From positions 90,001 to 122,000 of the forward strand of contig NZ_KK211037.1 of NCBI RefSeq assembly GCF_000619845.1: a DNA stretch of 32,000 nucleotides, written 5' to 3'. Under the pieces are notes generated by a model. That model was not told where the DNA came from and did not search any database. It saw only the letters and a program-made list of their open reading frames with translations. The stretch's first letter is position 1, and each line of letters begins with the position of its first letter. Below are positions 22,739-29,562 of this stretch, piece by piece. The DNA is from Alkanindiges illinoisensis DSM 15370. GTDB lineage: Bacteria > Pseudomonadota > Gammaproteobacteria > Pseudomonadales > Moraxellaceae. Position numbers and translations under genes: made by a program.

Positions 22739-22947
22739 ACATCTGGCTGATTAGATAAGATAATTAAATAATAACTAAGTTAGCTGAGTAGGCTGGTAAT
22801 GAATTAAAGAAATCAAACCCGATGAATAAAACAAAATTATAAAAAATGAATAAACCGGATTATTACTGTAGTGTCATCTTGGGTTGATACCATAGAGCAG
22901 TAAGCGCATTAGATCACGTTTGAGATTATCATCTTGTTTTGATGTGC

Positions 22948-22956
22948 TGTTATAAT
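22948..22956 (+). promoter_or_regulatory. possible extended -10 promoter element (TGtTATAAT) for rph
   Basis: TGTTATAAT lies 36 nt upstream of the rph ATG in a long AT-rich intergenic region. AAGGA RBS at the gene start. Confidence 0.3.
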
Positions 22957-22991
22957 GCCTCTTAAAATTTAACGCCAGCCAAGGAAATCCT

Positions 22992-23708
22992 ATGCGCTTT
23001 GACCAACGCAGTAACGATCAATTAAGACCTGTAACGTTTACCCGTCAATATACACGTTATGCTGAAGGCGCTGTGCTGGTTGAGTTTGGCAACACCAAGG
23101 TGCTGTGTACGGCCAGTGTAGAAAGCAGCGTTCCACGTTTCCTAAAAGGTACTGGCCAAGGCTGGATTACTGCCGAATACGGCATGTTGCCGCGCTCTAC
23201 CCATACCCGCAATGACCGGGAAGCTGCGCGTGGCAAGCAATCTGGCCGCACACAGGAAATTCAGCGCCTGATTGGCCGTAGCCTGCGCGCGATGGTTGAC
23301 CTCAAAAAACTGGGTGAAAATACCATTACCATTGATTGTGATGTATTGCAGGCTGATGGCGGCACCCGTACAGCAGCCATTACGGGTGGCGCGGTAGCAC
23401 TGGTTGATGCATTGACTGCATTGCAGGCACAAAAAAAACTGAAAAGTGACCCGCTAAAAGGTCTGGTGGCAGCGATTTCTGTGGGCATGTATCAGGGTGA
23501 AGCCTTGCTGGACTTGTGCTACGAAGAAGATTCCAAGTGTGAAACCGATCTAAACGTGGTGATGACCCAATCTGGTGAATTTATTGAATTGCAGGGCACT
23601 GCCGAGAGCAAGCCCTTTAACCGCGCGCAATGCAACCAGATGCTGGAACTGGCTGAAAAAGGAATTGCCGAGCTGATTCTGGCGCAGCAAAAAGCACTGG
23701 GCTGGTAA
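22992..23708 (+). CDS. rph: ribonuclease PH
   Basis: 238 aa. MR.D.R...QLRPV.F.R.Y...[18 protein letters not shown]...[46 protein letters not shown] is the canonical RNase PH sequence. Confidence 0.95.
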
Positions 23709-23801
23709 GTCTGGTAAGTGCTGTCCTGGTGAACCTTGTCTTGATGAGCACTGTTTTGATAAATATGGCGCTAGCTTAAAGCTTAACCGGAAATTAAAAA
23801 A

Positions 23802-23828
23802 GGCGAGAATTATCTCGTCTTTTTTTAT
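23802..23828 (+). terminator. rho-independent terminator after rph
   Basis: GGCGAGA-ATTA-TCTCGTC (7 bp, one G-U pair) followed by eight T residues. Confidence 0.75.
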
Positions 23829-23994
23829 GTTGCAAAACTTTCAGGGTAGACCGTCACAAAACTCATGCACAGGTGGGTAAAAACTGTTTTATGGTCAATT
23901 TATGAGATGCTGATCTTCAATTGTTAATATGAAGCGACCCTATAAAAACGGGTGGACTGGCCGTATGGCTTTAAGCCACCTGACGGAGAAATCC

Positions 23995-25146
23995 ATGCTT
24001 AAGCGTACAACCTTAACCCTGCTCATGGCTGGCCTGATGGCGAGTTTGGCGGCCTGCAATAATTCGTCCAATAGTGTGGCTGCGGAAGCTGCCCCTGTCG
24101 TGGACAGCAAAACCAGCTTTAGCAGCCGCAAAGTGGCTCAGTTTAATGAACCGTGGGCCATGAGCTTTTTGCCGGACGGCCGCTTACTGGTCACTGAAAA
24201 AAAAGGCCAGTTAAAGCTTTATGATATAAAAACTGGAAAAACCGGCAGCATTACTGGCGTCCCGCAAGTGGCTTATGGCGGACAAGGTGGTCTTGGCGAC
24301 ATAGTGCTACATCCGGATTTTGCCAAAAACGGACTGGTATATTTAAGTTATGCTGAAAGTGGTACAGGCGGCAAAGGCGCAGTAGTAGCACGCGGTAAGC
24401 TAGCACTGAACAACACGGGTGGCGGCCAGTTATCCGAGCTGCAAGTCATCTGGCGGCAAGTGCCCAAGGTCTCAGGCGATGGACATTTTGGCCACCGCAT
24501 TGCTTTTGATCAAAGCGGCCTGCTGTGGATTTCCTCTGGCGAACGGCAAAAGTTTGATCCCGCGCAGGATATGCGCAGCAATCTGGGCAAAATCATCCGG
24601 CTTAAGGATGATGGCAGCATCCCGGCAGATAACCCATTTGCCAGTCAGGGCGGCGTGGCGGCGCAGGTCTGGAGCCTTGGCCATCGTAATCCACTGGGAC
24701 TGGCCTTTAATGCCAAAGGTGAACTGTGGGAAATTGAAATGGGTCCCAAGGGCGGTGATGAACTCAACCTGATTGAAAAAGCCCAGAATTATGGCTATCC
24801 GCTGGTTTCTAACGGCGATCATTATGATGGCACGCCCATTCCTGACCACGACACCCGGCCTGAATTCAAGGCACCTGCCGTGAGCTGGTCTCCGGTGATT
24901 TCACCCTCCAGCCTGATGTTTTACAGCGGTAACCAGTTTCCAGCCTGGAAAAATAATGCCTTTGTTGGGGGCTTATCCTCAGAGGCGCTTATCCGCATTG
25001 AATTTAATGGCAACAGGACATATGAGGCTGAACGCTTTGATATGGGCGCACGTATTCGTGAAGTAGAACAAGGCCCGGATGGGTCAATCTGGTTGCTGGA
25101 AGATGGGCCAAATGCCAACTTACTGCAACTCCAGCCTAAAACATAG
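23995..25146 (+). CDS. PQQ-dependent soluble sugar (aldose/sorbosone) dehydrogenase, lipoprotein (YliI-like)
   Basis: Lipobox MLKRTTLTLLMAGLMASLAAC. Beta-propeller family motifs are present (PWAMSFLPDGRLLVTEK.G, GGLGDIVLHPDF, HFGHRIAFD, GKIIRL..DGSIPADNPF, WSLGHRNPLGLAF, GPKGGDELN, NYGYP). GGAGA lies 5 nt upstream of ATG 23995 (the tracked ORF starts at 23929). Confidence 0.85.
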   Translation: MLKRTTLTLLMAGLMASLAACNNSSNSVAAEAAPVVDSKTSFSSRKVAQFNEPWAMSFLPDGRLLVTEKKGQLKLYDIKTGKTGSITGVPQVAYGGQGGLGDIVLHPDFAKNGLVYLSYAESGTGGKGAVVARGKLALNNTGGGQLSELQVIWRQVPKVSGDGHFGHRIAFDQSGLLWISSGERQKFDPAQDMRSNLGKIIRLKDDGSIPADNPFASQGGVAAQVWSLGHRNPLGLAFNAKGELWEIEMGPKGGDELNLIEKAQNYGYPLVSNGDHYDGTPIPDHDTRPEFKAPAVSWSPVISPSSLMFYSGNQFPAWKNNAFVGGLSSEALIRIEFNGNRTYEAERFDMGARIREVEQGPDGSIWLLEDGPNANLLQLQPKT

Positions 25147-25170
25147 CGGCTTAAGTTTGATGGGCCGCTA
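25144..25170. terminator. hairpin between convergent genes (weak terminator candidate)
   Basis: TAGCGGC-13 nt-GCCGCTA. There is only a poor U-tract on either strand. Confidence 0.3.
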
Positions 25171-25223
25171 CCCTGCATTAGTCTGATTGAGTGTGGCGGC
25201 TTAAAAATATCGTTAAAGCTGGT

Positions 25224-25856
25224 TTAAGCAGTTGCTTTCACATGCTGCAAGAACTGCTGGGTTGGGGTTTGAAAATAAATATCAAAACTGGCACTCACTG
25301 TTTGATCTGCCTGACTGAATTTTTTAAAAATGGTCGTGAGCGGCGCAATATAAGTATTCATCCACTCACTTGTAGAGCGACATTGCTGCGGATTGCGTAA
25401 ACTTTGCTGCAAATGTATAAGCTCCTGATAAATTGGGCTGATGTCCTCATTAAATACGAATAATTCCATGGTCATCGGGTCGATTGCATTGACCACAATA
25501 TCTTCTGCAAATCTGCCCACCGTCTTTAGGCGAATGCCTGAACCAGTAAAACAAGAATAAAGCAGCCGGGTTTTTTCAAGTTGTGCATGCTCACCAATCT
25601 CCAGACGCCTTGCATCACAGGCATCACGCAATAATGCAGGTAATTGCTGAGGATTATTACTTTGTTGAAAAGATTTAAAAATTCGTTCAAGTGTAAGGCT
25701 TTCACCCGTACCAGTTATTATGCCCTGCTGCCAGAAACGGATTTTTTGTAAGGTATCGGCATGGCGACTCTCAGCCAAACTGTTTTCAATTGTCATGCGA
25801 TTGTCGGCAGCCACTACTACACTGTCTTCAAGCTGGATTGCAATAATAAAAGTCAT
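25224..25856 (-). CDS. hypothetical protein with proteasome-beta/HslV-like (Ntn-hydrolase) N-terminal signature
   Basis: A 210-aa ORF whose sequence from residue 2 is TFIIAIQLEDSVVVAADNRMTIEN...LQKIRFW..GIITGTGESLTLERIFKSF...FTGSG. It aligns by eye to Thermoplasma beta ([24 protein letters not shown]...KKLFQI) and HslV ([21 protein letters not shown]...KKVRRL...[20 protein letters not shown]...IGSGG). Confidence 0.55.
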   Translation of the reverse strand: MTFIIAIQLEDSVVVAADNRMTIENSLAESRHADTLQKIRFWQQGIITGTGESLTLERIFKSFQQSNNPQQLPALLRDACDARRLEIGEHAQLEKTRLLYSCFTGSGIRLKTVGRFAEDIVVNAIDPMTMELFVFNEDISPIYQELIHLQQSLRNPQQCRSTSEWMNTYIAPLTTIFKKFSQADQTVSASFDIYFQTPTQQFLQHVKATA

Positions 25857-25885
25857 TTGGTAAAAATTCAGAGTTTGGTTAGAAT
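25857..25885 (+). promoter_or_regulatory. candidate sigma70 promoter for the VgrG-tail/toxin/immunity operon
   Basis: TTGGTA (25857-25862), a 17-nt spacer and TAGAAT (25880-25885), about 50 nt upstream of ATG 25934. Confidence 0.35.
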
Positions 25886-25933
25886 GCGAACTAATTTGAA
25901 TAATGCATCATAATTAAAGATAAGGCCAATAAG

Positions 25934-26377
25934 ATGAATCAACAGCCAGCCTTCAATAGTTTGGAGATTGCCACGCCTGTATTAAGTGCAGGCGGCTCAC
26001 AAGTCAAAATCAGTGCTAAAGGCATTGAAGTGATTACTGGCGGCAAGTTTGAAGCCAAAGCCGGGCAGCATCAGTTTTTGGGCGGGGAGAAAATTGATAT
26101 TAGCGTACCAGTATTACCGAAATTTCAGAATAAAAACTGGATTGCTCTGGAGCATCTGGATGCAGATAACCGGCCATTTGCTAATCTGGGCTATAAAATA
26201 TTCTTTGAAAATAATCAGACGATAGAGGGCAAACTTGATCAGCAAGGTAAGGCTTATCATGAAAATGTGCCGGAGCAAGCCATAAAAGTAGAATATGAGG
26301 AAAATACCACAATTAAAGATGAGCCTTGGGATACTTATGATTCTGTACTGGCTCAACTGAATAAGTTTGAAAAATAA
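25934..26377 (+). CDS. stand-alone VgrG C-terminal fragment-like protein with small beta-rich tail domain
   Basis: Residues about 15-63 (VLSAGGSQVKISAKGIEVITGGKFEAKAGQHQFLGGEKIDISVPVLP) read like the last repeat of the VgrG beta-helix/DUF2345 region (compare GGAYLKLEGGNIEL..PG.F.VKA..H.F.GP). The tail contains GYKIFFENNQTIEGKLDQQGKAY, a motif typical of cargo-binding extensions. An in-frame stop at 25901 shows there is no longer vgrG reading frame upstream. Confidence 0.65.
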   Translation: MNQQPAFNSLEIATPVLSAGGSQVKISAKGIEVITGGKFEAKAGQHQFLGGEKIDISVPVLPKFQNKNWIALEHLDADNRPFANLGYKIFFENNQTIEGKLDQQGKAYHENVPEQAIKVEYEENTTIKDEPWDTYDSVLAQLNKFEK

Positions 26378-26401
26378 AATGATTAGTAAAGTGATTACAA
26401 A

Positions 26402-27946
26402 ATGACAGATTTTTTACCCTCAAAGAAAGACTTATTAAATGCATTAGCTTCTATTGCCGCACCTGTTAATAAAGCAATTCAAAAAGGTCAGGAAACGCTT
26501 GAGGATATTGCTGAATGGTTATGGGTAGTTATTCAGGGAGATTTTGCCGAGGAACAAAGCACTGCACAAATTGCCACAGGGACAGTTATTTCAATGATTC
26601 CCTTTGTGGATCAGATCTGTGATGTACGTGATCTTTGTGCGAATTGCATGAAAATTAAGGAAGATATTAATAATCCTTGGGTATGGGTTGGTTTAATCCT
26701 CACCTTAATTGGTTTATTTCCTGTTTTGGGTTCACTGTTTAAAGGCATTTTTAAAGTCATTCTGGCACCTGTGCGCCGTTTTATGCTGCGGCCTGCTACC
26801 AAAGCGCTTCAGTTTACAGGGGGCAATATTTATAAAATGGCTGAACCCGCCATTGAAAGCGGAATTACCGAGCTAAATAAATTTCTAGCCCGTCCAGCTG
26901 TTAAAAAAGCTATTAAAAGTAAAGGCATTACGAATATTTATAAATCCATTGCAACTAAAATTCGTGAAGTAAAAGCAGTTATTTCTACAAAAGAGTTGCT
27001 AAGTGTTTTTGACAAATTACTGGGTTATCTTAAGGAAACCGTTAATTTTATAGATAAATATGCCAGTCGCGGGGTGGGGATTAAAGCAAAAAATATGCTG
27101 AAAGACGTGGTTGAGATAAGAAATCTAGCCAATCAAAAGCTGGGTACATTTTTAAAACCAATACAAGATTTTTTAGAAAAGCTGGCAATCAGAATAGATA
27201 GGGAAAGTGATCAGGCTTTTAAAGCAACGACGAACGTGAGGAATTTGACGCAGTTTAGAAGAGTTTCCGAAGCCGAAGAGTTAGCAGCATTTAGAAAGAA
27301 TAAACCAAATTGGGTATATAAAAAGGTGAAAGGACGTACGTTACCTTTTGAACCCGCAAAAGTAAATCCTAAAACAGCAGTGACACCTTTTCATCCTGAT
27401 CTTAGTGATACGCAGCCTGCTTTAAAAAGCGGTTATGAGCATCCTTTAAAAAGCAAGTACAACACCTTTGCTGAAGGTTTAATTAAGGATAGAGTGTTTC
27501 ACGAAGGTGAAGTTTTGGTAAGAGTTGTAGCACCAGGAAATTTAGATAACAGTATTTGCTGGATGAGAAAATCCGAGTTTTTAAAATTAAAAAGTCGTGA
27601 AGAATGGCGTGATAAATTTGCGGTTTGGGCGAAGTGGAACACGAATGGTGAGTACCTTGAATACACGGTACCTAAAGGAAAAAAGCTTTATGCATGGGAA
27701 GGCCCCGCTGCCTCTCAGCAAGAGGCTGAATTTTATTTAAGAGGTGGTGGCATACAAATTGTTTTAGACCCAGATGACCTTATTTCATCGGGCTTAAGTA
27801 AACGTAAATTAACCGGTTGGGGCTATGGTACAGACTCGTCGATTGGTGAATTCTCCGTGGTTGGTGTGCCTACATTACAGACCAATCTAGGAGATTATAG
27901 TTTGGCTCCGCGCTTAGAGCATAAACCTCAGACTACAGGACATTAA
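26402..27946 (+). CDS. putative T6SS-associated effector/toxin of unassigned family (N-terminal conserved motif plus TM segment, Lys-rich helical middle, C-terminal toxin-like domain)
   Basis: 514 aa. The N-terminal region reads WLWVVIQGDFAEEQSTAQIATGTVISMIPFVDQICDVRDLCAN and is followed by the hydrophobic WVWVGLILTLIGLFPVLGSLFKGIFKVIL (about aa 93-120). The C-terminal domain (about aa 355-470) contains GEVLVRVV...WAKWN...YLEYTVPKGKKLYAWEGPAASQ...GGGIQIVLDPDDL. Its position after a VgrG-like gene and before a tightly coupled small gene supports the call. Confidence 0.55.
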   Translation: MTDFLPSKKDLLNALASIAAPVNKAIQKGQETLEDIAEWLWVVIQGDFAEEQSTAQIATGTVISMIPFVDQICDVRDLCANCMKIKEDINNPWVWVGLILTLIGLFPVLGSLFKGIFKVILAPVRRFMLRPATKALQFTGGNIYKMAEPAIESGITELNKFLARPAVKKAIKSKGITNIYKSIATKIREVKAVISTKELLSVFDKLLGYLKETVNFIDKYASRGVGIKAKNMLKDVVEIRNLANQKLGTFLKPIQDFLEKLAIRIDRESDQAFKATTNVRNLTQFRRVSEAEELAAFRKNKPNWVYKKVKGRTLPFEPAKVNPKTAVTPFHPDLSDTQPALKSGYEHPLKSKYNTFAEGLIKDRVFHEGEVLVRVVAPGNLDNSICWMRKSEFLKLKSREEWRDKFAVWAKWNTNGEYLEYTVPKGKKLYAWEGPAASQQEAEFYLRGGGIQIVLDPDDLISSGLSKRKLTGWGYGTDSSIGEFSVVGVPTLQTNLGDYSLAPRLEHKPQTTGH

Positions 27947-27951
27947 AAACA

Positions 27952-28905
27952 ATGAAAAATTATAGCATTAACCCGAAAGAAGCCTATTTATTAGAGCAGT
28001 TTAGTTCCCTACAGTTTTTTGAAACCATGCGAAATAACTATCATCTTTTTTTAGATGGTTTGGAAGAGTTATTTGAAATTTATATGCATAACTTACCTTA
28101 TAATTTACGAGATTTACCATTACCAGAACAGGCTGATATTAACTGGGGTGGGACTGTCTTGCCGAATTTGCGCGGTACTATGGATCGGATTAATTATGCG
28201 TATGCCAAAATCAAAGCAGGCGATTTTACTTATTTAGATTGTGTTGGAGAGATTCGTTCCAATGATAAAGGTTTAAGTGAGTTTTCTCCGCACTGGATGG
28301 ATGATTTACCCACAGATAAGGTTTGGCAAACTTTTGATTATTATTCGAAAGCAAAGCAGTATGCTTCGATTATTGAATATACATATCCCACATCTTGGAA
28401 GAAAGACTTCCTTGCTAAAGAATTCCCCAGTTTAAGTCTATTTAGTAATATTGATATAGAGTTGCCAGCCTCCTATCCAATTTATCGCATTAATCCTGAG
28501 ATAAAAATTAAAACAGGAGAAAAAGTAGTTCAAAAAGGTATATATATCTGTGAAGAATTAGACATGGGCTTAACATTTATTGCATTTAGTCCGGAGAAAG
28601 ATAATGGTTTAGCACCTGAATACACTCGTCGAAATTCTGAGACGGGTGAAAATATGTACTTTGAAACTATGTGGACTTTGGTTGAACGAATTGCCGATGA
28701 AGGGGGATCTACTGAAACTATTCAGGCTGAAAACTTAAAAGGTTTTGGCGGAGAGATTTGCCCATACTCAGGCCAGTGGTGGAGTCCTGCTAATCAATCA
28801 GAAAAACGTTATTTTGAGCAAGGTGATACTTTTCCTAAACTGAAAAACAATTTCTGGGGTAAAACCATTTGGTATCTGGAAGTGACCAATCAGATTAAAG
28901 ATTAA
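27952..28905 (+). CDS. putative cognate immunity protein (cytoplasmic; C-terminus reminiscent of Imm72-type domains)
   Basis: The start is 5 nt after the upstream stop. There is no signal peptide or TM segment. The C-terminal GEICPYSGQWWSPANQSEKRYFEQGDTFPKLKNNFWGKTIWYLE has the conserved Cys/Trp/GxxxW pattern I associate with polymorphic-toxin immunity domains. This is from recall and is unverified. Confidence 0.5.
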   Translation: MKNYSINPKEAYLLEQFSSLQFFETMRNNYHLFLDGLEELFEIYMHNLPYNLRDLPLPEQADINWGGTVLPNLRGTMDRINYAYAKIKAGDFTYLDCVGEIRSNDKGLSEFSPHWMDDLPTDKVWQTFDYYSKAKQYASIIEYTYPTSWKKDFLAKEFPSLSLFSNIDIELPASYPIYRINPEIKIKTGEKVVQKGIYICEELDMGLTFIAFSPEKDNGLAPEYTRRNSETGENMYFETMWTLVERIADEGGSTETIQAENLKGFGGEICPYSGQWWSPANQSEKRYFEQGDTFPKLKNNFWGKTIWYLEVTNQIKD

Positions 28906-28950
28906 AGAGCAGAATATCCAACTATCTCAAAAACTAATAAAAGGAATATC

Positions 28951-29562
28951 ATGACCAATATCGCATTGTTTGATTTTGATGGCACCATCACGCAGAGCGA
29001 TACATTTACACCGTTTATTTATACAGTGGTCAATCCCAAGCGACTCAGATGGGGCAAGCTAGTATTATTGCCTTATATCTTGGGATACAAACTGGGACTT
29101 TTATCAGGTTCAGTAATCAGGTCAAAAATCTTTAAATTTGGATTTCAGGGAGCTGATGCTGCGCTGTTACGCAAAGCCGGCCTTGAGTATAGCCAGAATG
29201 ATCTGCCACAAGTGCTTCGCCCGAATGCTATGCAGCAGATTAACTGGCACTTGGCGCAAGGCGATAAAATTGTAGTGGTTTCTGCGTCAATGGATGTGTA
29301 TTTAAAGCCTTGGTGTAAATTACATGGGCTGGATTTGATTTGCAGCGAAATAGAAGAAAACCACGGTATGTTGACAGGGATGTATAAGCATCAAGATTGT
29401 AGTGGCATCATCAAGAAAAACAGAATACTTGAAAAATATGACCTCTCTGATTTTGAAGAGGTCTATGTTTATGGCGATACCATTGAGGACAGGGAAATGC
29501 TGTCACTGGGCAGCAAACGGTTTTATCAATGGCAAGAAGTAGGCAATGATTTTTTTGTCTGA
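28951..29562 (+). CDS. HAD-IB family hydrolase/phosphatase
   Basis: Contains FDFDGTIT (motif I), VVVSAS (motif II) and YGDTIEDREML (motif IV), with a cap insertion typical of subfamily IB. AAGGA RBS. Confidence 0.8.
   Translation: MTNIALFDFDGTITQSDTFTPFIYTVVNPKRLRWGKLVLLPYILGYKLGLLSGSVIRSKIFKFGFQGADAALLRKAGLEYSQNDLPQVLRPNAMQQINWHLAQGDKIVVVSASMDVYLKPWCKLHGLDLICSEIEENHGMLTGMYKHQDCSGIIKKNRILEKYDLSDFEEVYVYGDTIEDREMLSLGSKRFYQWQEVGNDFFV

Follow-up and report, generated by a model that had tools for sequence, protein, structure and literature searches.

A predicted proteasome-type threonine hydrolase encoded beside stand-alone VgrG-tip cargo modules in Alkanindiges and Acinetobacter

The window analysed here is a stretch of 32,000 nucleotides from Alkanindiges illinoisensis DSM 15370 (contig NZ_KK211037.1, positions 90,001 to 122,000 of the forward strand). 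Our subject is a gene on its minus strand that encodes a 210-residue protein with the look of a proteasome-type N-terminal nucleophile (Ntn) hydrolase, together with the genes that diverge from it, which appear to carry the spike tip and cargo of a type VI secretion system (T6SS). Homologs of this Ntn protein, which begins MTFIIAIQLEDSVVVAADNRMTIEN, adjoin a partner resembling the tip of the spike protein VgrG in almost every lineage whose gene surroundings could be retrieved. The features of the locus are given below in window coordinates.

25224..25856, minus strand: gene for the Ntn (Thr1) hydrolase homolog, proteasome-beta/HslV-like, 210 aa, recognised from the open reading frame (ORF), an AlphaFold2 (AF2) model, Foldseek and homologs
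25854-25856, minus strand: initiator ATG of the Ntn gene (window letters 'cat')
25851..25853, minus strand: Thr2 codon, predicted N-terminal nucleophile, Thr1 once Met is removed (window letters 'agt', that is ACT)
25803..25805, minus strand: Asp18 codon, counterpart of proteasome Asp17, invariant in 40/40 and aligned to Asp17/Glu17
25743..25745, minus strand: Lys38 codon, counterpart of proteasome Lys33, invariant in 40/40 and aligned to Lys33
25704..25706, minus strand: Gly51 codon within G49-x-G51-E52, the Gly47 oxyanion-hole region, invariant in 40/40
25293..25307, minus strand: D184...S188, probable Asp166/Ser169 equivalent at the end of helix H4 (D in 34/40, S/T in 40/40)
25857..25933, no strand: divergent intergenic region of 77 bp between the Ntn gene and the mini-VgrG gene
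25934..26377, plus strand: stand-alone VgrG C-terminal module ('mini-VgrG'), 147 aa, with an 18-aa leader, a predicted beta-helix tip handle and a predicted TTR-like domain (PF10106, Foldseek)
25988..26089, plus strand: the 'handle' AGGSQVKISAKGIEVITGGKFEAKAGQHQFLGGEK, aa 19-52 of the mini-VgrG, predicted last VgrG beta-helix rungs, recognised by its recurrence in Ntn-linked partners
26092..28931, plus strand: swappable cargo cassette of TTR-like domain, effector and immunity gene, delimited by comparison with locus L001
26402..27946, plus strand: putative T6SS effector, 514 aa, from its position behind the VgrG module and a relative in strain RF14B
27952..28905, plus strand: putative cognate immunity protein, 317 aa, from NF041834 and a relative in strain RF14B

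That the Ntn ORF is a real gene and not a chance one follows from an exhaustive phmmer/HMMER scan of 1.84 billion representative proteins, which at E<=1e-3 returned 56 homolog clusters, nearly all of them paired with our protein residue 1 to residue 1. A word-indexed search yielded 13 closer relatives in Alkanindiges, in a Moraxellaceae metagenome-assembled genome (MAG) and in Acinetobacter, the closest of which, from Alkanindiges illinoisensis, is 89 % identical in protein and about 92 % identical in DNA. Conservation was assessed in an alignment of 40 full-length members that are 21-89 % identical to the window protein, 35 of them at <=40 %, while pairwise identity among the homologs drops as low as 15-25 %. 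In the plasmid loci and the relaxase-bearing contig, the Ntn genes carry the NCBI name 'hypothetical protein'.

Only D18, K38 and G51 are invariant among the 210 columns of this alignment. At position 2, 35 of the 40 sequences have Thr and 3 have Ser, and the two seeming exceptions are in fact MT starts as well: P0039 begins MT, and the start of P0057 was miscalled, its DNA reading ATG ACT ATG ATT (M-T-M-I-V). After this correction position 2 is T or S throughout. Thr2 aligns with the mature Thr1 of beta subunits in the PDB, and K38 meets Lys33 after an S3/S4 loop that is about 5 residues longer. Similarly, the 'ITG-TGESL' of the family pairs with 'IAGLVGDAQ' of Thermoplasma beta when the family profile is aligned by hhalign to that subunit. 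Outside the invariant set, E52 is E or D in 36/40 and S101 is S or T in 39/40; D184...S188, which sits between helix 162-183 and strand 191-196 (the penultimate strand) in the AF2 model, probably matches Asp166/Ser169. Thr behind an initiator Met is a good substrate for methionine aminopeptidase, so no propeptide is needed. Because it is exactly the catalytic set that is conserved at 15-25 % overall identity, the Ntn protein is probably an active enzyme and not a pseudo-enzyme.

AF2, given a 13-sequence alignment as input, modelled the protein with a pLDDT of 89.3 and a pTM of 0.87. Its elements run S-S-S-S-S-S-H1-H2-S-S-S-S-H3-H4-S-S, with helices at 53-66 and 69-87 (H1 and H2 are thus kept) and with residues 24-37 as a short low-confidence loop or strand. 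A Foldseek search of the PDB with this model returned 589 matches at E<=1e-3, the first 50 of which consist entirely of 20S beta subunits and Anbu (probability 1.0, TM 0.54-0.65, 210-235 aligned columns), the best E being 1e-8 for 20S beta and TMq reaching 0.65 for Anbu. Among the viral models of BFVD, phage proteins named 'proteasome beta', 'HslV' and 'Ntn hydrolase' rank first. Profile matches fall in the N-terminal part: PF00227 pairs aa 4-39 with profile positions 7-42 (E 0.0093), with sub-threshold matches in 7 of the 13 close homologs, and TIGR03634 (archaeal beta) pairs aa 2-59 with positions 2-56 (E 5.7e-4). A profile of the 40 family sequences gave 34 matches among all PDB sequences (best E 0.004), 31 of which are proteasome beta subunits with the family Thr2 on position 1 of the mature chains; the other three are a centromere protein, a ribose-5-phosphate isomerase and a tRNA methyltransferase. 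PDB entry 5IR0, 'Uncharacterized protein ORF19' (E 0.044, aa 93-153, the strand region plus H3), was taken as a chance match. The match to the HslV family of the PHROGs was weak (E 0.12) and the best E for any PHROG was at least 0.036; with PADLOC reporting nothing, a role in a defence system or in a phage is unsupported. On the basis of the AF2 model and the Foldseek matches, to which the sequence evidence adds weak though consistent support, we are highly confident in the predicted proteasome-type Ntn fold, of the proteasome-beta/Anbu/HslV family, over the full length of the protein.

The original prediction, made from the DNA letters alone, had proposed a divergent proteasome-beta/HslV-like Thr1 hydrolase, and both the fold and the conserved residues support it. 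Its reading of a Met-Thr start without a propeptide is borne out by the codons ATG-ACT at 25856-25851, and the N-terminal strand-turn-strand of proteasome beta that it had described is matched by PF00227, TIGR03634 and the PDB beta subunits, all in register with Thr1. It had also placed the Lys of LQKIRFW at Lys33 after a short insertion, which is the K38 that aligns there and never varies; indeed, the N-terminal Thr (Ser in 3 members), D18 and K38, whose conservation it had proposed as a check, are kept among the 40 sequences. A structure search, its other check, returned the Ntn-hydrolase fold in the 589 PDB matches. Two of its statements did not hold. The C-terminal half, described as not recognisably proteasome-like, has a fold-level match in H3, H4 and the two terminal strands, and the TGSG at aa 104-107, suggested as the G-S-G motif, is present in the window protein but replaced in homologs by FTNEG, TTGTG, LSDRS, YSENG and others. 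We ruled it out as the G-S-G on account of this non-conservation and of its position in a hairpin between strands 97-104 and 107-116.

To place the family in its genomic context we considered every member with retrievable surroundings, about 17 lineages, and counted a pairing if the partner carried the handle motif or at least its TTR-like part. The Ntn homolog adjoins a VgrG-tip partner in 16 of the 17 lineages, including three plasmids and one co-directional gene order, and the adjacency holds at Ntn identities of 15-25 %. The paired loci are the following.

Window and L001-L003, Alkanindiges / Moraxellaceae: Ntn gene and mini-VgrG
L004, A. geminorum: Ntn gene and mini-VgrG
L005, A. guerrae: Ntn gene and mini-VgrG
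L006-8, A. gerneri: cargo of a VRR-NUC effector and two TsiV genes
L009: Ntn gene and VgrG-tip partner
L010-12: cargo of a lysozyme/pesticin-like effector and LprI
L013: Ntn gene and VgrG-tip partner
L014-16: cargo of a VRR-NUC-like effector and TsiV
L019: partner with the TTR-like part, without the handle
L021: co-directional order of Ntn gene, mini-VgrG, zincin and lipoprotein
L022: partner with a partial handle
L024, reached from the partner side: cargo of two PoNi genes and TsiV
L027-28, contig with relaxase and MobC (L027 2075-5141): cargo of a LysM/VanY peptidoglycan hydrolase
L029, plasmid pB18-6 of A. indicus: mini-VgrG starting MAGGSQIII
L030, plasmid p94-2-p2 of A. indicus: cargo of an Ntox15 toxin and a GAD-like protein
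L031, 82-kb A. oleivorans plasmid: 66-aa handle, DUF4123 adaptor and Tox-REase-5

The pairing was also recovered in the reverse direction, for a search that started from the mini-VgrG P0085 and its own homology led to an Ntn gene 76 bp away. In the 15 other divergent loci the two genes stand 41-104 bp apart. Beyond the Ntn gene, away from its partner, the neighbours vary by lineage (GSDH, rph, TetR, NMO/FtsK, DsbA, relaxase, rep), and since these far-side genes differ everywhere the mobile unit is the Ntn gene together with the mini-VgrG and the cargo. In the window a GSDH (glucose/sorbosone dehydrogenase) gene at 23929-25146 separates rph from the Ntn gene, and at the Moraxellaceae MAG locus L003 (8607-8710 against window 23709-25248) GSDH is missing and rph lies about 100 bp from the Ntn gene. 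Neither the window nor the other loci with annotated genes showed an AAA+, hslU or Anbu-operon gene near the Ntn gene, save for a 213-aa AAA family ATPase on the L030 plasmid, which was not examined. The original prediction of a gene with no hslU, Anbu partner or AAA+ gene adjacent thus stands for the window; its description as stand-alone is right as to an ATPase partner and wrong otherwise, given the VgrG-tip module paired with it in 16 of the 17 lineages. It had likewise seen correctly that the gene diverges from a toxin module, the neighbour across the 77-bp intergenic region being the mini-VgrG with its T6SS cargo. Within that region we found a single sigma70-like site on the plus strand (25857-25885), no better than those in shuffled sequence, and a terminator scan gave none; nor was any operator or motif shared across lineages in the divergent intergenic regions, which are simply AT-rich. 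Taken together, we consider a functional link of the Ntn gene to the T6SS likely.

The partner gene is itself unusual. Its product matches PF10106 (DUF2345) with an E of 8e-7, pairing aa 16-51 with profile positions 115-150 of 151, that is, with the last 36 positions only. Its homologs are all small (84-253 aa) and frequently annotated as 'VgrG, partial', and one partner among the plasmid and relaxase-contig loci bears the NCBI label 'type IV secretion protein Rhs'. The AF2 model has an overall pLDDT of 66 with a poor N-terminus, which is unsurprising in a fragment of an intertwined trimer, and a confident beta-sandwich at 69-121; from this model only the sandwich and its match to 6SJL were used. 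That entry, the C-terminus of the enteroaggregative Escherichia coli (EAEC) VgrG spike that binds Tle1, is its best Foldseek match in the PDB (E 2e-3, probability 1.0), and CnaB/SdrD-B-type sandwiches follow. The DUF2345 match and this structural match together identify the mini-VgrG as a predicted free-standing set of VgrG tip rungs joined to a TTR-like, effector-recruiting domain. We rejected the idea that it is a contig-end artefact or a pseudogene truncated by an insertion sequence (IS), for the Ntn-linked ORFs are intact and often start M↓AGGSQ (the arrow marks the boundary).

The element that these partners hold in common is the handle, with the motif A-G-G-S-Q-[IV]-x-I-x3-G-I-T-x-I-T-x3-F-x2-K-A-G-Q-H-x-F-x-G-G, which is found in 15 of the 17 Ntn-linked partners. 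In 9 of the 17 the partner ORF starts exactly at M↓A(G/A/S)G(S/T)(Q/R/E), all three plasmid copies reading MAGGSQIII, and in another 6 a leader of 13-23 aa ends right before AGGSQ. The window belongs to the latter kind: its leader, MNQQPAFNSLEIATPVLS, runs directly into AGGSQ and still resembles the preceding VgrG strand of longer vgrG remnants, where ...IEITATKKIVLT stands immediately ahead of AGGSQ.

Comparison of the window with A. illinoisensis NFYY 23406 (L001) shows how the cargo is changed. The two are 92 % identical in DNA over window positions 22931-26091, which take in the whole Ntn gene, the spacer between the two genes and the first 52 mini-VgrG codons (...KAGQHQFLGGEK); they are unrelated after 26091, and identity returns, at 93.7 %, at 28932. 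In the intervening cassette L001 (6305-7766) has a different TTR-like partner C-terminus of 135 aa, an effector of 222 aa and an immunity protein of 158 aa with a membrane anchor. Both junctions are sharp, one directly behind the handle and the other just upstream of a HAD-hydrolase gene (28951). The cargo is exchanged by recombination behind the handle, and the Ntn gene stays with the handle, not with the cargo.

The cargo of the window has a history of its own. No Pfam or NCBIfam family matches the 514-aa putative effector, in which a hydrophobic stretch lies near residues 90-120 (WVWVGLILTLIGLFPVLGSLFKGIFKVIL). The C-terminal 54 aa of the 317-aa protein match NF041834, the T6SS immunity protein TaeI, with an E of 1.2e-9, under the curated cutoff. 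Both proteins recur in Acinetobacter sp. RF14B (L026, SMTB01000109.1) at 76 % and 63 % identity, where they stand behind a 204-codon 3' remnant of vgrG (L026 1-725) that is apparently IS-truncated, the start of a transposase reading outward at the contig end. Because the RF14B copy follows such a remnant, this cargo would normally ride on a true vgrG. Across the modules, the toxin families are VRR-NUC, Ntox15, Tox-REase-5, LysM/VanY, lysozyme-like and zincin, the immunity families are TsiV, PoNi, LprI and TaeI, and the adaptor is DUF4123. The module is present on three complete Acinetobacter plasmids (L029, L030 and L031; NZ_CP044461.1, NZ_CP041288.1 and NZ_CP110255.1) and on one relaxase-bearing contig. 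In the window the GC content is 42 % in the Ntn gene and 36-40 % from the mini-VgrG through the cargo into the beginning of the HAD gene (25800-29400), with flanks of 46-54 %, and this low GC would fit a horizontal transfer out of a lower-GC (Acinetobacter-like) source.

From the fold, the conservation of the catalytic residues, the linkage, the cassette swapping and the carriage on plasmids we infer an activity, a substrate and a purpose. The whole is best explained, with a probability that we put at roughly 0.5, by a catalytically competent Thr1 enzyme that would act as a sequence-specific peptidase or transpeptidase on the VgrG-tip module. Methionine aminopeptidase would expose Thr2 as the nucleophile, and D18, K38 and G51 would supply an apparatus of the Asp17/Lys33/Gly47 type. 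The gene would then be an accessory of a mobile T6SS cargo module laid out as Ntn gene, short intergenic region, mini-VgrG, effector and immunity, whose partner combines the tip handle AGGSQ...KAGQH..GG with either a TTR-like effector-binding domain or a DUF4123 adaptor. The enzyme might trim the leader ahead of AGGSQ in the mini-VgrG or, alternatively, might cut or re-join the resident VgrG at x↓AGGSQ; either way, a portable tip-plus-cargo module would be mounted on the host spike. The handle is the most economical candidate for the substrate or binding site because it is the element common to otherwise unrelated islands. The recombination junction right behind it, the 9 partners that start at M↓AGGSQ and the 6 leaders that end there also point to it as the focus, and we advance it as the substrate tentatively, at somewhat less than even odds.

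Several observations weigh against this interpretation. At the level of sequence, the PF00227 match misses the gathering score (16.1 bits against a cutoff of 22.4) and TIGR03634 falls far below its own (19.5 bits against 224). The hhalign alignments of the family profile with single sequences of Thermoplasma beta and E. coli HslV have the right register at probabilities of 20 % and 6 %, and they served for residue correspondence only. No G-S-G/Ser129 equivalent is conserved in the 40-member family, and there is no conserved Ser before H3. At the level of context, the most divergent member, P0062 (L017 2573-4672, a metagenome contig; E 1.6e-4), has no VgrG neighbour: its gene, part of a P4-like island with a tyrosine integrase, AlpA and a primase, is flanked by those for a 202-aa multi-TM protein and an FRG-domain protein. 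P0062 keeps T2, D18, K38 and G51, with G-Y in place of G-E, and may be a separate functional branch. As for the handle, the L022 partner has part of it only (MAG plus KFEVKAGQH) and the L019 partner none. In a folded VgrG the handle would lie inside the intertwined trimeric beta-helix, hard for a protease to reach, and its conservation could stem from gene conversion with functional vgrG genes and not from selection on the predicted small protein.

The proposed peptidase or transpeptidase has to be weighed against accounts that assign the enzyme either more or less than this. The boldest is a connectase-like ligase, which would cut the resident VgrG at ...(L)T↓AGGSQ... and have the Thr1-linked intermediate resolved by a free AGGSQ N-terminus, so that tip, TTR domain and effector would be grafted covalently onto the host spike. 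In connectase, itself related to the proteasome, a conserved motif serves as the site at which proteins are recombined, and the enzyme's second substrate was made as M-PGA... with the Met removed by methionine aminopeptidase (PMC7980362). The 9 of 17 partners that begin M↓AGGSQ offer a parallel to this engineered substrate and the other leaders end at the same point; the motif also occurs within longer vgrG remnants as ...LT↓AGGSQ, and the module is carried by plasmids that must use a foreign T6SS. Nevertheless, PF09894 (connectase) matches 4 of the 13 members with a best E of 0.064, which is chance level, connectase is without H1 and H2 and has a two-helix S3/S4 insertion whereas in the Ntn family H1/H2 are kept and only a short loop of low confidence joins S3 to S4, and the AGGSQ motif is buried in the folded VgrG trimer, all of which makes the ligase improbable. 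A quality-control or regulatory protease of the module, which would degrade unloaded mini-VgrG or effector or limit their levels and have no part in mounting, would fit the conserved catalytic residues, and the tight divergent pairing suggests co-regulation. All four helices for proteasome ring contacts are kept in the model, so that a degradative particle like that of HslV or BPH is possible. We nonetheless judge such a protease unlikely: there is no unfoldase, and it is not evident why a mobile cargo module would need a degradative protease of its own. Moreover, the effectors differ wholly between islands, which would place any shared degron once again in the handle or the TTR part.

The same genomic distribution bears on two further explanations. 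A general ATP-independent protease, as assumed for BPH and Anbu, would have no tie to the T6SS, and the pairing would go back to one ancestral junction kept by linkage. The divergent P0062 does lie outside a T6SS context, and in the survey by Fuchs et al. 2021 none of the 22 new proteasome homologs could be given a functional context (PMC8665760). Yet 16 of 17 lineages show the adjacency, even where Ntn identity is as low as 15-25 %, amid unrelated flanks and on chromosomes as well as plasmids, which is hard to reconcile with it, and the pairing survives even the rearrangement to a co-directional order in L021. Because adjacency persists over that much Ntn divergence, mere hitch-hiking is unlikely, and we give a general protease a low probability. 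Finally, the protein might bind the VgrG-tip module without catalysis, as an adaptor, chaperone or scaffold in the manner of the DUF4123, DUF1795 or DUF2169 adaptors, whose genomic position its own resembles. In that case one would not expect the invariant residues to be the catalytic ones only, as they are, and L031 has a bona fide DUF4123 adaptor besides the Ntn gene; a role of this kind is very improbable.

To our knowledge, no physiological role has been established for those bacterial proteasome homologs that lack an ATPase partner, namely Anbu, BPH and the 22 subfamilies of Fuchs et al. 2021. The pairing described here therefore gives an orphan protease family its first functional context, one that is recurrent and comes with a candidate substrate and a candidate site of cleavage or ligation. 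For T6SS biology it suggests a class of mobile cargo module in which a stand-alone VgrG tip bearing an effector-binding domain is combined with an effector/immunity pair and with a dedicated Thr-hydrolase, and one has to ask how a piece of the spike whose gene is separate from vgrG would be loaded onto the T6SS. Were the ligase true, plasmids and islands could add new toxins to a resident T6SS with no full VgrG gene of their own. Either a motif-specific peptidase or a ligase would be of biotechnological interest, as is the case with connectase. Neither the T6SS context nor the stand-alone VgrG-tip cargo module seems to have been described before: a literature search for a tie between VgrG or the T6SS and a proteasome homolog gave nothing relevant. 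The passages searched in surveys of Acinetobacter T6SS loci mention vgrG genes that are truncated or orphaned, as well as PAAR proteins carrying DUF2345 fragments, and no Ntn-type neighbour gene of vgrG turned up in them.

Among known systems, the 20S proteasome beta subunit (PF00227, MEROPS T1) shares with the Ntn family the alpha-beta-beta-alpha fold over its full length, the equivalents of Thr1, Asp17, Lys33 and Gly47, and N-terminal strands in register; the Ntn family differs in its identity of about 12-15 %, in having neither propeptide nor alpha subunit, and in its lack of a conserved G-S-G/Ser129 and of the C-terminal H5. HslV (ClpQ) is closer in being bacterial, in starting Met-Thr without a long propeptide, in its compact four-helix core and in its in-register hhalign alignment. 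Unlike HslV, which belongs to a heat-shock operon, the Ntn family resides in T6SS cargo islands and plasmids, with no hslU nearby in the surveyed loci and no significant match to an HslV profile. Anbu and BPH are likewise bacterial proteasome homologs without a dedicated AAA+ unfoldase, and two structures of Anbu, 5NYG and 5NYW, rank with the closest structural matches of the Ntn model (TMq 0.62-0.65). However, neither the long C-terminal coiled-coil helix of Anbu nor the acidic pore loop of BPH is seen in the Ntn protein. The operon partners of Anbu are ATP-grasp, alpha-E and transglutaminase-like genes, and none of these Pfam families is found among the neighbours in any Ntn locus surveyed, where the neighbours are VgrG-tip modules.

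Connectase (MJ0548, PF09894) has the proteasome fold and acts on one conserved motif of its partner, being able to swap what comes behind it, as we propose for the Ntn enzyme. It is archaeal, and it has lost H1/H2 and gained a two-helix insertion between S3 and S4 (PMC8665760), whereas the Ntn family keeps H1/H2, has no such lid and resembles it at chance level only. A further comparison is with the 22 new proteasome-homolog subfamilies of Fuchs, Alva & Lupas 2021, which include the gammaproteobacterial GPH and the proteobacterial DPH and for which no informative genomic context was reported (PMC8665760). Judged by their description, GPH and DPH are similarly restricted to Proteobacteria, small and uncharacterised, with conserved Thr, Asp, Lys and Gly, so the Ntn family may be one of these two subfamilies, even though neither the GPH protein WP_152342571.1 nor the DPH protein WP_074989469.1 is among the accessions of 20 Ntn clusters. 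It is a new, or at most a recently catalogued, variant of a known fold, and in contrast to GPH and DPH in that paper it has a strong genomic context. That context finds its own counterpart in EAEC VgrG1-Tle1 (6SJL), with its TTR domain, and in the DUF4123/Tap-1 adaptors: here, too, the end of the needle is followed by a TTR-like domain (or, in L031, by the handle and a DUF4123 adaptor), then by effector and immunity genes. What sets the modules described here apart is that the partner is a separate protein of 66-240 aa without the gp27/gp5 body of VgrG, and that it is always accompanied by an Ntn gene.

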